Part shown: positions 26,596-30,539 of the stretch, piece by piece
Layout of the letters: every line of letters starts with the position of its first letter
Numbering within the stretch: the first letter of the stretch is position 1
NCBI GenBank assembly: GCA_951813015.1
Contig: CATOTG010000002.1
Coordinates: 325,310-389,309 of the forward strand
Origin: an uncultured Thermoanaerobaculia bacterium
Lineage (GTDB): Bacteria; Acidobacteriota; Thermoanaerobaculia; Multivoradales; Multivoraceae
DNA length: 64,000 nt
Reading direction: 5' to 3'
Notes under the pieces: generated by a model
The model's input: the letters and a program-made list of their open reading frames with translations, nothing else
The model's database searches: none
Told to the model about the DNA's origin: nothing
Translations under genes and position numbers: made by a program

Positions 26596-29285
26596 CGCAG
26601 ACGCTTCTGTCGTGAGCCTGGGACTGACGCCGGCCGGTGGCCTGCGCTGGACACAAGACGGCGTTCAGGATGCTGCGGAGGAGACCGGACACCTGGAGCA
26701 GGCCTTCAACGCCGATTGGCGCGAGGCCCTGTTCGCGCTGGCGGCGGGAAGACGAGTACCCTGGGGTCGCCCCCTCTCCGCTTCTGGCAGAGCATCGCCG
26801 AGCGCCATCTGACCGGGCTCTGCCAGCTGCCGGAACGGGCGGCGCAACCCACTGTGGCGCCACCGACCGCGGCCGCGTGCGCCGCTCTCGTAGAAGCCGC
26901 CCCACCGATGGTCGGCGGCGAGTACCTGTCCGTGGAGCGCCTGCAGCGCGTCTGGACCGAGATGGACGACTGGGTGCGCCAGGCGGCCTCGACGGCAGGA
27001 GGGCTGTCCCCGTTCCTGCGTGAGCGAGCGCCGAACTGGCATCAAGGTGGGGCGGGTGTGCTCCACCTGGCCGAGAACAAGAGTGACCCGGCACGGCCGT
27101 TCGCGTTCATGGCCACCTATGCCGCGCGACTCGGCGCGACCGGACGGGCGCGGCACGTGCCGCTGCGACGAGCGCTCGAGCAGTACGCGGGCGCGAACAA
27201 CCGCGCAGCGCTGATCACGCTCCTGTCACCGATTCAGCAAGCCGCGAAGGCGTGCGACTGGGTACGGGAGATCGTGGATTCGGGCGACGTCTACCGGCCG
27301 ATGGCCTGGACACCGGATCGCGCCTATCGACTCCTGCGCAGCGTGCCGGAACTCGAGGAGAGCGGGCTGTCCGTGCGGTTGCCGAACTGGTGGCGCAAAC
27401 GTCCGCGACCGCAGGTCTCCGTGACGTCGGCGAGACGTCATCCCTGGTCGGCGCCGAGGCCATGCTGGACTTTCGCGTCGAAGTCGCTCTCGGCGGCGAG
27501 CCGCTGTCGGAAGCCGACCTGAACGAGATCCTGGAAGGCGACGGCAACCTGGTGCTTCTCAAGGGTCAATGGGTCGAAGTGGACCGCGACCGTCTGCGGC
27601 AGGCGATCGAGCACTGGGATGCCGTGCACCGCGCGGCCGGCGAACACGGCATCTCGTACATCGAGGGAATGCGCCTCCTCGCCGGCGCCTCGGTCGATCT
27701 TCAGGGTGAGGCGGAAGCCGATGCCGAACGCCGCTGGGTCCATGTCGAGGCCGGGGACGGCATGCGCAGGATTCTCGCCGGCATGCGTGATCCGGGAGCG
27801 CTGGCGCCCGTCGACGACGGCACGCTTCAGGGGACCCTGCGGCCATACCAACGCGCAGGTGTCGCATGGCTCGTCTTTCTCACCCGTCTGGGCCTCGGCG
27901 CCTGCCTGGCCGACGACATGGGCCTGGGCAAGACGATCCAGGTTGCTGGCCCTGCTGCTGGCTGACCGCGGCGGGCACGACGACGAGCGACGAGCGCCCT
28001 CGCTGCTCGTGATTCCCGCCTCCCTGCTCGGAAACTGGCGCGCCGAAGCGGCTCGGTTCGCGCCGTCGCTGGTCCTTCGATTCCTGCACCCGTCGGAAAC
28101 GGACCCGCGAGACCCTGAACCGGATTGCCCGCGACCCCGCGCGGTCACTGGCCGACGCCGACCTGGTCGTGACCACGTACGCGATGCTCACGCGGCAGTC
28201 CTGGCTGGCCGAGATGCGGTGGCGACTGATCATCCTGGACGAAGCGCAGGCCATCAAGAACCCCGGCACGCTCCAGAGCCGTTCGGCTCGAAAGCTCGAG
28301 GCCGACGCCCGCGTCGCGATGACGGGCACGCCGGTGGAGAATCGCCCGGGAGACCTGTGGGCGCTCTTCGATTTCCCTCCATCCCGGTCTGCTCGGCTCG
28401 CAAGCCGTGTTTCGGCGCTTCGTCAAGACCCTGCAACAACGCGAACTGCAGCCGTTCGCGCCGCTTCGTCGACTCGTCGCGCCCTACATCCTGCGCCGCC
28501 TGAAGACGGACCGCAGCATCATCGACGACCTGCCCGACAAGACCGAGATGGCGCGCTACTGCCATCTGACCGAACCCAGGTCGCGCTCTACCAGAAGGTG
28601 GTGCGGTCGATGAAACGCGACATGGAGTTGGCCGAGGGCATCAAGCGGCGGGGCCTCGTGCTGCAGGCACTCATGCGATTGAAACAGGTCTGCAACCACC
28701 CCCAGCCAGCTCTCCGGAGACGGCGACTACCGACCGAACCACAGCGGCAAGTTCGAACGCATTGCCGAGATCTGCGCGGAACTCGCCGAACGCCAGGAAC
28801 GCGTTCTCGTGTTCACCCAGTTCCGGGAGATCATCGATCCGCTGTCCACCCATCTCGCCGCAGTCTTCGGCCGGCCGGGACTGGCGCTGCACGGCGGCAC
28901 CGGAGTCAGGGCGCGCCGCGGCCTGGTCGAAGCGTTTCAGCGCGGCGACGGACCGCCGTTCTTCGTGCTTTCCCTCAAGGCGGGAGGCACGGGCCTGAAC
29001 CTGACGGCCGCTTCGCACGTGATCCACTTCGACCGCTGGTGGAACCCGGCGGTGGAGAATCAGGCGACCGACCGGGCCTTTCGGATCGGCCAGCGCCGCA
29101 ACGTGGTCGTCCACAAGTTCATCACTTCCGGCACCATCGAGGAGAAGATCGATCGGCTGATCAGCGAGAAGAACGATCTGGCGAAGGATCTTCTGGAGGA
29201 CGGCCGCGAGGTGAAGCTCACCGAACTCTCCGACGAAGACCTGCTGGACCTGGTCCGCCTCGACATCACCCGAGCGGGGGTCTAG
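26596..29285 (+). pseudogene. SNF2-family helicase with N-terminal SNF2_assoc domain, disrupted by at least six frameshifts
   Basis: Homologous segments switch frame in this order. (1) 26612-26812: LEQAFNADWREALFALAAG. (2) ~26770-27430: RFWQSIAERH...LPNWW. (3) 27430-27960: [12 protein letters not shown]...[10 protein letters not shown]. (4) 27960-28095, then 28100-28380: VVTTYAMLTR...ILDEAQAIKNPGT...MTGTPVENR. (5) 28380-28580: LHPGLLGS...ILRRLKTD. (6) 28580-28700, then 28700-29285: helicase C [11 protein letters not shown]. At least four junctions fall in runs of 4-5 C. Confidence 0.7.
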
Positions 29286-29291
29286 CAGCCC

Positions 29292-30539
29292 ATGTACAGG
29301 TTCCCGACCTACGTTCCAGTCGCCGCGCGACGCGCCAAGGCAGCGCGCAAGGTCGCCAGTCTCCGCAAGCAGGGGAAGAAGGTCCAGCCAGTCGAGATCA
29401 CGGGCAACCTGATCGCCCGGAGCTTCTGGGGCAAGCGCTGGTGCAAGCGCATGGAGTCTTTCTCCGACTACCGCAACCGACTGCCGCGGGGCCGCAGCTA
29501 CGCGCGCCACGGGGCCGTCTGCGACCTGGCCATCCGGGCCGGCCGGGTCGACGCGCTGGTCTTCGGTACCAGGCTCTACCGCGTTTCCATTCGCATCGAA
29601 GGGCTCAAGCCGGCAATCTGGAAGTCGATCAAGACAAAATGCACCGGACAGATCGGTTCCGTCCTCGAACTGCTCCAGGGGAAACTGTCCGATCAGGTGA
29701 TGGACGTGGTCACGGATCGCCGCCGCGGTCTGTTCCCGACCCCGCGCCAGATCGAATTCGATTGCAACTGCCCGGACTGGGCGGGCATGTGCAAGCACGT
29801 GGCTTCCGTCCTGTACGGCGTCGGCAACCGCCTCGACGACAGCCCTGAACTCCTCTTCCTGCTGCGCAAGGTCGACGAATCGGAGTTGATCGATGCCGAG
29901 ATGGCGCTGCCGGCCGGCGCGGCGGGGACGGATTCCCTCGAGGAAGGCGACCTGTCGGGCATCTTCGGCATCGACCTGGACACGGACGATGCGCCGGCTG
30001 CCCGCTCCCGACCGCGGAGGAAGGCGTCGCGCAACGCCCGCGAACGCAGCGCTTCGCGAACCACGAACCCGCGGAAGCGCACCGGCAAGAGGGGCGCCGC
30101 GAGAAAGAGCGCCGCGACGAAGGCCTCCGCACGGAAGCGCGCTTCGACGAAGACCTCCGGGCGCAAGCGCGCCGCGAAGAAGGCCCCGGCGGCGCCGCCG
30201 CCGTTCCGCCCCACCGGCGCCCGGGTGCGCGGTCTCCGTCGGCGCAGCCGCATGTCGGTGGCCGACTTCGCCGCCACACTCGGAGTTTCGCCGGCAACCG
30301 TGCGCCGCTGGGAGTCCGCGCGCGGCCCGCTCACCCCTCAGGTCCGCCTCGCACGACGCGCTGCAGACCCTGAACGAACAGATCGGGACAGCCGGCAGAT
30401 AGCTGCCGCCGTCGTCGCCGGGAACTCGCCGCGAAGCTCGCAGGCAAGTCGCGTCGGCCGGCTTCAGACGGGCGCCGAACCGACCGTCGTGCTCCCGCGA
30501 CCGGCCAGTCCCCTGACCCGGTACGCTCGGCTCGCATGA
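29292..30539 (+). CDS. SWIM zinc-finger protein (SNF2 partner) with HTH segment and a Lys/Arg/Ala-rich histone-H1-like tract
   Basis: 415 aa. SWIM motif CNCPDWAGMCKHVASVLY. Basic tract KRTGKRGAARKSAATKASARKRASTKTSGRKRAAKKAPAA. HTH-like MSVADFAATLGVSPATVRRWE. The stop overlaps the next gene as ATGA. Confidence 0.75.
   Translation: MYRFPTYVPVAARRAKAARKVASLRKQGKKVQPVEITGNLIARSFWGKRWCKRMESFSDYRNRLPRGRSYARHGAVCDLAIRAGRVDALVFGTRLYRVSIRIEGLKPAIWKSIKTKCTGQIGSVLELLQGKLSDQVMDVVTDRRRGLFPTPRQIEFDCNCPDWAGMCKHVASVLYGVGNRLDDSPELLFLLRKVDESELIDAEMALPAGAAGTDSLEEGDLSGIFGIDLDTDDAPAARSRPRRKASRNARERSASRTTNPRKRTGKRGAARKSAATKASARKRASTKTSGRKRAAKKAPAAPPPFRPTGARVRGLRRRSRMSVADFAATLGVSPATVRRWESARGPLTPQVRLARRAADPERTDRDSRQIAAAVVAGNSPRSSQASRVGRLQTGAEPTVVLPRPASPLTRYARLA

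Follow-up and report, generated by a model that had tools for sequence, protein, structure and literature searches.

Ten single-nucleotide indels across an SNF2–SWIM gene pair beside a class 1 DISARM island in a contig from an uncultured Thermoanaerobaculia bacterium

Results

We analyzed a 64,000-nt stretch of contig CATOTG010000002.1 from an uncultured Thermoanaerobaculia bacterium (the window, to which all positions refer unless another locus is named), in which the pieces of a gene encoding an SNF2-family helicase are scattered over several reading frames directly upstream of a gene for a SWIM-type zinc-finger protein and, beyond it, a class 1 DISARM defense system (Table 1). Because the window is ~68% GC, chance open reading frames (ORFs) are plentiful and third-position GC content (GC3) indicates the coding frame well. 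GC3 frame plots combined with three-frame translation revealed that SNF2 begins at GTG 26612, ends at TAG 29285, and passes through frames 1, 0, 2, 0, 1, 2, 1, and 2 in that order. An earlier note on this DNA had counted at least six frame segments; there are eight, and the damage, ten indels when the SWIM gene is included, is greater than was first stated. Frame correction yielded a product of 890 aa with no internal stop, which matches PF12419 (E = 2e-32), PF00176 (E = 4e-60), and PF00271 (E = 9e-19) and retains helicase motifs I to VI, including GLGKT, DEAQ (DEAQAIKN), and TGTPVEN (MTGTPVEN). With a rough concatenation of the pieces as query, intact ~890-aa database proteins were found at up to 81% identity and 100% query coverage, and the corrected protein is identical to the orthologue in the closest relative, L081, at 863 of 890 positions. 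This end-to-end match shows that the fragments belong to one gene, as the earlier note had proposed for a helicase of ~900 aa; the possibility that they derive from two or more different genes is answered by the presence of all three domains in a single polypeptide. SNF2 as deposited has no uninterrupted ORF and contains nine 1-nt indels, which amount to seven net frame changes plus a compensating pair; the gene is uninterrupted in L081, in a second relative, L059, and in 120 database homologues. As written, SNF2 cannot be translated into a functional helicase.

The relatives used for comparison were obtained in two ways. In a scan of species-representative genomes, 80 related loci from many phyla were found, among them L059, a metagenome-assembled genome (MAG) of Candidatus Multivorans sp. 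(Acidobacteriota/Thermoanaerobaculia) that is syntenic with the window from the acyl-CoA dehydrogenases through SNF2, SWIM, and drmD to drmMI, at 77 to 89% nucleotide identity. A search with the SWIM protein returned the window's own product (P0121, 415 aa) and a 92% identical relative of 369 aa (P0122), the latter located on L081 (a 4.63-Mb contig, ptg000038c) and on an alternate contig, L082. L081 and L082 show 94.3 to 96.4% nucleotide identity to the window across the region, with L081 aligning to window 24243–30406 at 94.3% and to window 55775–61640 at 95.8%. Both SNF2 (890 aa) and SWIM (369 aa) are intact in L081, where the pair is followed by one ABC-type ATPase gene and then by the beta-lactamase, BNR_2, PQQ_2, and glnA genes, as in the window past 55775. 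L081 and L082 differ from each other over 12.7 kb by 28 substitutions and no gaps, and so give no example of an error patch.

Alignment of the DNA to L081, together with codon reading, located ten indels, all of them ±1 nt. Six are insertions and four are deletions; SNF2 carries nine of them and SWIM the remaining one. All lie within 26747–30337, that is, inside the operon at 26612–30402. The second and third compensate each other and had been missed in the earlier note; between them the sequence VGRVCF, near-invariant among the 120 homologues, reads GGAGVL in the window. That note had traced four junctions to runs of cytosines. Three of these hold (28375, ~28570, and 28699), and the fourth, at 26770–26774, does not: the C5 run there was made by a G>C substitution, and the true indel lies ~25 nt upstream. 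Of the ten, just four or five are in C runs; the others lie in 1- to 2-nt runs of A, T, or G, and no common sequence motif was visible on inspection of the ten sites. The indel rate per run was 0.001, 0.006, 0.019, and 0.095 for runs of 1, 2, 3, and 4 nt, respectively, a dependence that fits read error as well as cellular slippage and does not discriminate between them. The ten-indel region contains no nonsense codons, no larger deletions, no insertion sequence (IS) insertions, and no lost helicase motifs. Neighboring genes are intact, as had been claimed: the remaining long ORFs of the window are all open with coherent domain matches, and no coding frameshift was found in the ~10 kb of coding sequence beside the pair that could be aligned to L081 or in the ~9 kb that could be aligned to L059, the 1-nt differences there being intergenic.

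The tenth indel bears on the SWIM gene, which the earlier note had taken to be intact. As written, its ORF reads through to 30539 (415 aa), and its GC3 leaves the annotated frame after ~30240. Removal of one C at 30334–30337 restores a protein of 369 aa, the length of P0122, that terminates at TAG 30400–30402; its frame-0 end in the window, LRSASHDALQTLNEQIGTAGR followed by the stop, matches the C termini in L081 and L059 (LRTASRNALRTLHDQIETATASRRP and a stop in the latter). The frameshift lies 65 nt ahead of this native stop. The features ascribed to the protein are indeed present, namely a helix-turn-helix (HTH) domain (PF13560, residues 309 to 367) and a long, variable linker rich in Lys, Arg, Ala, and Ser, and a CxCx(n)CxH SWIM signature is visible by eye (CNCPDWAGMCKH / FDCNCPDWAGMCKH). 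A match to PF04434 (SWIM) was not reached for the protein at E <= 0.01; JGI names its homologues "uncharacterized Zn finger protein." Because the extra C abolishes the native stop, translation as written would read through to an ATGA overlap with the drmD start at 30536–30539, which the earlier note had presented as a coupling of the two genes. This overlap exists only in the frameshifted reading. In the unshifted one, SWIM and drmD are separated by 133 nt, and L059 has a spacer of 104 nt (SWIM stop at 13740, drmD ATG at 13844). Homology to L081 ends at 30406, 4 nt past the native SWIM stop, and this point is the left junction of the island.

Table 1. Features of the window at and beyond the SNF2–SWIM pair
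Feature	Position	Strand	Description
SNF2-family helicase gene (DUF3670/PF12419 + SNF2-rel_dom + Helicase_C)	26612..29285	+	eight frame segments as written; 890 aa corrected
SWIM-type zinc-finger / K-R-A-rich linker / HTH gene	29292..30402	+	native extent, 369 aa after removing one C
Indel 1	26746..26750	+	1-nt deletion (window GCGGGAAGACG, L081 GCGGAAAAGACG); frame shifted at ~codon 45
Indel 2	27044..27045	+	1-nt insertion, A>AA
Indel 3	27062	+	1-nt deletion, TT>T
Indel 4	27426	+	1-nt deletion, GG>G
Indel 5	27943..27944	+	1-nt insertion, T>TT; just past helicase motif I (GLGKT)
Indel 6	28104..28106	+	1-nt insertion, CC>CCC
Indel 7	28375..28377	+	1-nt insertion, CC>CCC
Indel 8	28570..28571	+	1-nt deletion, CCC>CC
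Indel 9	28699..28703	+	1-nt insertion, CCCC>CCCCC
Indel 10 (SWIM gene)	30334..30337	+	1-nt insertion, CCC>CCCC; last 22 residues replaced, native stop lost
Native SWIM–drmD spacer	30403..30535	+	133 nt between SWIM stop and drmD ATG
Strain-specific defense island	30407..55774	+	absent from L081; class 1 DISARM split by 11-kb nested block
drmD (SNF2-like helicase)	30536..33922	+	PADLOC PDLC02621, 1003 bits; intact, no frameshift vs L059
drmMI (N6-adenine methyltransferase, MmeI/Eco57I-like)	33981..38495	+	PADLOC 1308 bits; intact, 1504 aa
drmA	49396..52821	+	PADLOC 914 bits; intact
drmB (DUF1998/MZB)	to 54665	+	PADLOC 271 bits, Pfam MZB; intact
drmC (PLD)	54565..55635	+	PADLOC 228 bits, Pfam PLDc_2; intact

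A SWIM gene lies directly downstream of SNF2 on the same strand in the window and in ~70 of the 80 related loci, and the loci that lack one mostly end at contig edges. The drmD and drmMI genes follow this cassette in only one of the 80 loci, L059, so that an intact SNF2–SWIM–drmD arrangement does occur in a relative and is at the same time rare. This distribution, together with the presence of the cassette without DISARM in L081, indicates that SNF2–SWIM is an independent conserved pair. Judged from gene order, it is not a component of class 1 DISARM, which occupies an adjoining variable site.

Substitutions in SNF2 were polarized with L059 as the outgroup. The window lineage carries 10 synonymous and 12 nonsynonymous changes and the L081 lineage 12 and 5, respectively; the comparison of the window with L081 gives a dS of 0.045 and a dN/dS of 0.31, against a baseline dN/dS of 0.24 between L081 and L059. 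At that baseline ~6.7 nonsynonymous changes would be expected in the window lineage (roughly p = 0.04). Three of the changes private to the window lineage, F174L, L307I, and N590H, fall in near-invariant columns. The direction of the nonsynonymous changes, by tally, is 7 AT>GC vs 4 GC>AT in a gene of 69% GC. In total ~23 lineage-specific substitutions (at most ~26) stand against the ten indels. As a calibrator, the intergenic DNA of the window/L081 pair contains 45 substitutions and 10 indel events, a ratio of ~0.2; published mutation-accumulation ratios are ~0.1 to 0.2. At the intergenic ratio, nine indels would call for ~30 to 40 neutral substitutions in SNF2 by our calculation, so that the gene would have had to evolve neutrally over most of the period after its lineage diverged from that of L081. 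Such neutral decay predicts ~24 to 28 nonsynonymous changes, vs the 12 to 14 seen, and a joint fit that allows for intermediate scenarios gives roughly p = 0.005 to 0.05 (own calculation). A family-level, Tajima-type relative-rate test showed no clear acceleration, although it is coarse because the homologues are at most 82% identical; this test and a count of near-invariant-column violations were superseded by the L081 comparison.

Divergence from L081 varies widely among the neighboring genes, with dS values of 0.003 (BNR_2), 0.045 (PQQ_2), 0.045 (SNF2), 0.095 (SWIM), 0.19 (beta-lactamase), 0.30 (glnA), and 0.37 (ACAD2). This ~100-fold spread is the mosaic that would be expected of frequent homologous recombination between strains.

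The DISARM-like module reported by the earlier note is a complete class 1 system, with drmD, drmMI, drmA, drmB, and drmC all recognized by PADLOC on one strand downstream of the cassette. Window 30407–55774 is replaced in L081 by a short segment, which identifies the island as a strain-specific insertion. At this site between SWIM and the beta-lactamase gene, the 25-kb DISARM island of the window stands against a 1.7-kb segment in L081 (11119–12821), which holds one AAA_21 ATPase gene ~70% identical to window 47491–48814. As to marks of mobility, no tRNA gene was found, no integrase domain was present in the ORFs scanned, and no flanking repeat was evident among the repeat families listed. In L059, the drmMI homologue (18102–21269) is an ORF of 1055 aa vs 1504 aa in the window, and its homology ends at approximately window 37309, so that its C-terminal (target-recognition) part is different or truncated.

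Between drmMI and drmA lies a block of 11 kb (38496–49399) with a lower GC content of 0.63 to 0.66. It encodes an AAA+ ATPase beside an S8 subtilase, an ASCH-domain protein, a DUF5131 protein, an HNH endonuclease, a PIN-domain protein, and an AAA_21/AAA_15 ABC-type ATPase followed by a DUF4276 protein, and looks like a set of further defense or mobile genes nested within DISARM. Around the start of the HNH-endonuclease ORF, at 45135–45290, are three tandem copies of a 66-nt unit, 82 to 86% identical, with a short palindrome (CGTTYCCGCGGGAACG) in every copy. An ORF fragment at 47079–47417, which lies upstream of the AAA_21 gene, encodes a peptide 60% identical to the DrmA N terminus (compared with 49354–49800); it is underlain by a 201-nt direct repeat, 47197–47397 and 49391–49591, that is 74% identical. 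The fragment is what is left of another, diverged drmA 5′ end and points to past recombination or replacement inside the island.

Discussion

Two explanations of the ten indels remain in serious contention. We lean slightly toward a consensus error, local to this part of a long-read metagenome assembly, over a real pseudogene, and would hold that view at about an even chance. A stretch of ~3.6 to 4.4 kb would in this case be backed by one poorly corrected read or by very few reads, single-base consensus errors in it would produce the apparent frameshifts, and both SNF2 and SWIM would be intact in the cell. Such an origin is supported by the intact state of both genes in L081 and L082, and likewise in L059 and the 120 homologues, by the exclusive occurrence of ±1-nt changes with no nonsense codon, larger deletion, or lost helicase motif, and by the presence of a +1/−1 pair only 17 nt apart, which is typical of consensus misplacement. 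It is further supported by the number of indels relative to the few accompanying substitutions and by the lack of the GC>AT bias that unselected mutation would be expected to leave in a 69% GC gene. That long reads underlie the assembly is indicated by the location of P0121 on a single 641-kb contig and by the record names of the nearest relatives (ptg000038c and atg000814l), which point to long-read MAG assemblies.

The main alternative is that the operon was genuinely, and very recently, pseudogenized, which we regard as a live possibility of somewhat less than even probability. The route would start with an early slippage frameshift near codon 45 that killed the helicase; neutral slipped-strand mutation at short runs of G/C, A, or T would then have added the further indels, including the one in the by then useless SWIM gene. 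Several observations favor this history and weigh against a consensus error. The indels all sit in one functional unit, and the sequence to either side of it is clean; random placement would confine them to two genes or fewer in 32% of cases and to a single functional unit in ~12%. No coding frameshift occurs elsewhere in ~60 kb, including BNR_2 with its dS of 0.003, and the cleanness of the rest of the window makes contig-wide low coverage unlikely. The steep climb of the indel rate with run length follows the same trend as natural slippage, and 1-nt indels are frequent in the intergenic DNA of this pair of strains. Nonsynonymous changes are in marginal excess in the window lineage, and the three private changes at near-invariant residues are not what indel-dominated read errors would yield. 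Finally, there is real turnover nearby, seen in the insertion of the 25-kb island, in gene remnants such as the truncated drmA 5′ fragment, and in the range of dS from 0.003 to 0.37.

Against genuine pseudogenization stand the ratio of ten indels to at most ~26 substitutions, which is several-fold above the intergenic calibrator and also higher than published mutation-accumulation ratios; the shortfall of nonsynonymous changes relative to the number expected for nine neutral indels; the lack of nonsense codons, multi-base deletions, and IS insertions in the region; and nonsynonymous changes without GC>AT bias. Moreover, the frameshifted alleles were seen in no second assembly, P0121 being on one contig. 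A metagenome scan with a pattern for either allele at the 28699 site gave no match. Overall, the evidence for an artefact and that for real decay roughly cancel. We also considered whether the indels mark a stretch that is almost the same as in co-occurring strains; this idea was weakened by BNR_2 and PQQ_2, whose similarity to L081 is as high or higher and which have no indels.

A variant with genuine indels, in which loss of the cassette's function and gain of the DISARM island are causally connected, for example through incompatibility or redundancy of SNF2 and DrmD, appears improbable. It would invoke a locally indel-prone process, which would account for ten ±1 indels with almost no substitutions. 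Less probable still is the suggestion, made in the earlier note, that the SWIM protein was retained for a DISARM-linked role and is translationally coupled to drmD. Its basis is that the ORF as written ends in ATGA across the drmD start and that drmD and drmMI directly follow SWIM in L059 too. The overlap, however, depends on the single inserted nucleotide that abolishes the stop at 30400–30402, L059 keeps its spacer, the cassette occurs without DISARM in L081 and is paired with drmD in just the one locus of 80, and no PADLOC model matches the SWIM protein; as a prediction from gene arrangement, this coupling is contradicted by the present data. Expression by programmed ribosomal frameshifting or transcriptional slippage, which the location of several shifts in C runs might suggest, was rejected and has next to no chance of being correct, as it would have to accommodate seven net shifts, some forward and some backward, as well as a compensated pair, at sites that have no slippery motif in common, and all relatives, including the one with the 863/890-identical protein, have a single uninterrupted ORF at these sites.

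Under either cause, the locus is ordinary: nothing new is seen beyond a common frameshift cluster beside a known defense system. If the indels are an artefact, the case is one for caution in annotation, in that indel errors over 3.6 kb of a long-read MAG can mimic a decayed operon and also fake translational coupling to a defense gene. If they are real, the operon, which borders a defense island, became a pseudogene very recently and has an unusually large number of indels, a case of minor interest. The useful outcome lies in the corrections, namely that SWIM is also damaged and the ATGA coupling spurious, and in the distinction between SNF2–SWIM as an independent, widely conserved cassette and DISARM as a strain-specific insertion at a variable site.

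Relation to Known Systems

Class 1 DISARM consists of the same five genes as those found here; the window system differs in that its drmMI and drmA are separated by the 11-kb block. For the window SNF2 itself, the best NCBIfam match is the Streptomyces SCO1167/SCO6262 helicase family (NF058637), but the intact L081 orthologue scores 576.6 bits against a curated cut-off of 1200 and is therefore not an equivalog. The top PADLOC scores for the SNF2 motor core are to DpdE (402 bits) and ZorD of the Zorya system (384 bits), and the motor also matches PDB entries 1z63 and 8qy7. In these cases, however, the alignment is confined to the C-terminal motor domain (residues ~400 to 880), the NCBIfam ZorD model gives a score of 296, short of its cut-off of 1500, and the window SNF2 has neither a nuclease domain nor Zorya or Dpd partner genes.

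The closest correspondence is to pairs of a DUF3670-SNF2 helicase and a SWIM protein, among which we presume B. subtilis YwqA/YwqB and M. tuberculosis HelZ Rv2101/Rv2102 to be the same gene pair. The domain order PF12419, PF00176, and Helicase_C is the same in the corrected window gene, and, as in the window, a SWIM-motif protein is encoded directly downstream in ~70 of the 80 related loci. The window copy differs from such pairs in being frameshifted ten times and in having a partner with a C-terminal HTH and a long basic linker. From domain content and gene order, SNF2–SWIM corresponds to the poorly characterized YwqA-type Swi2/Snf2 translocases, of which YwqA has been reported to interact with RNA polymerase (PMC7385302).

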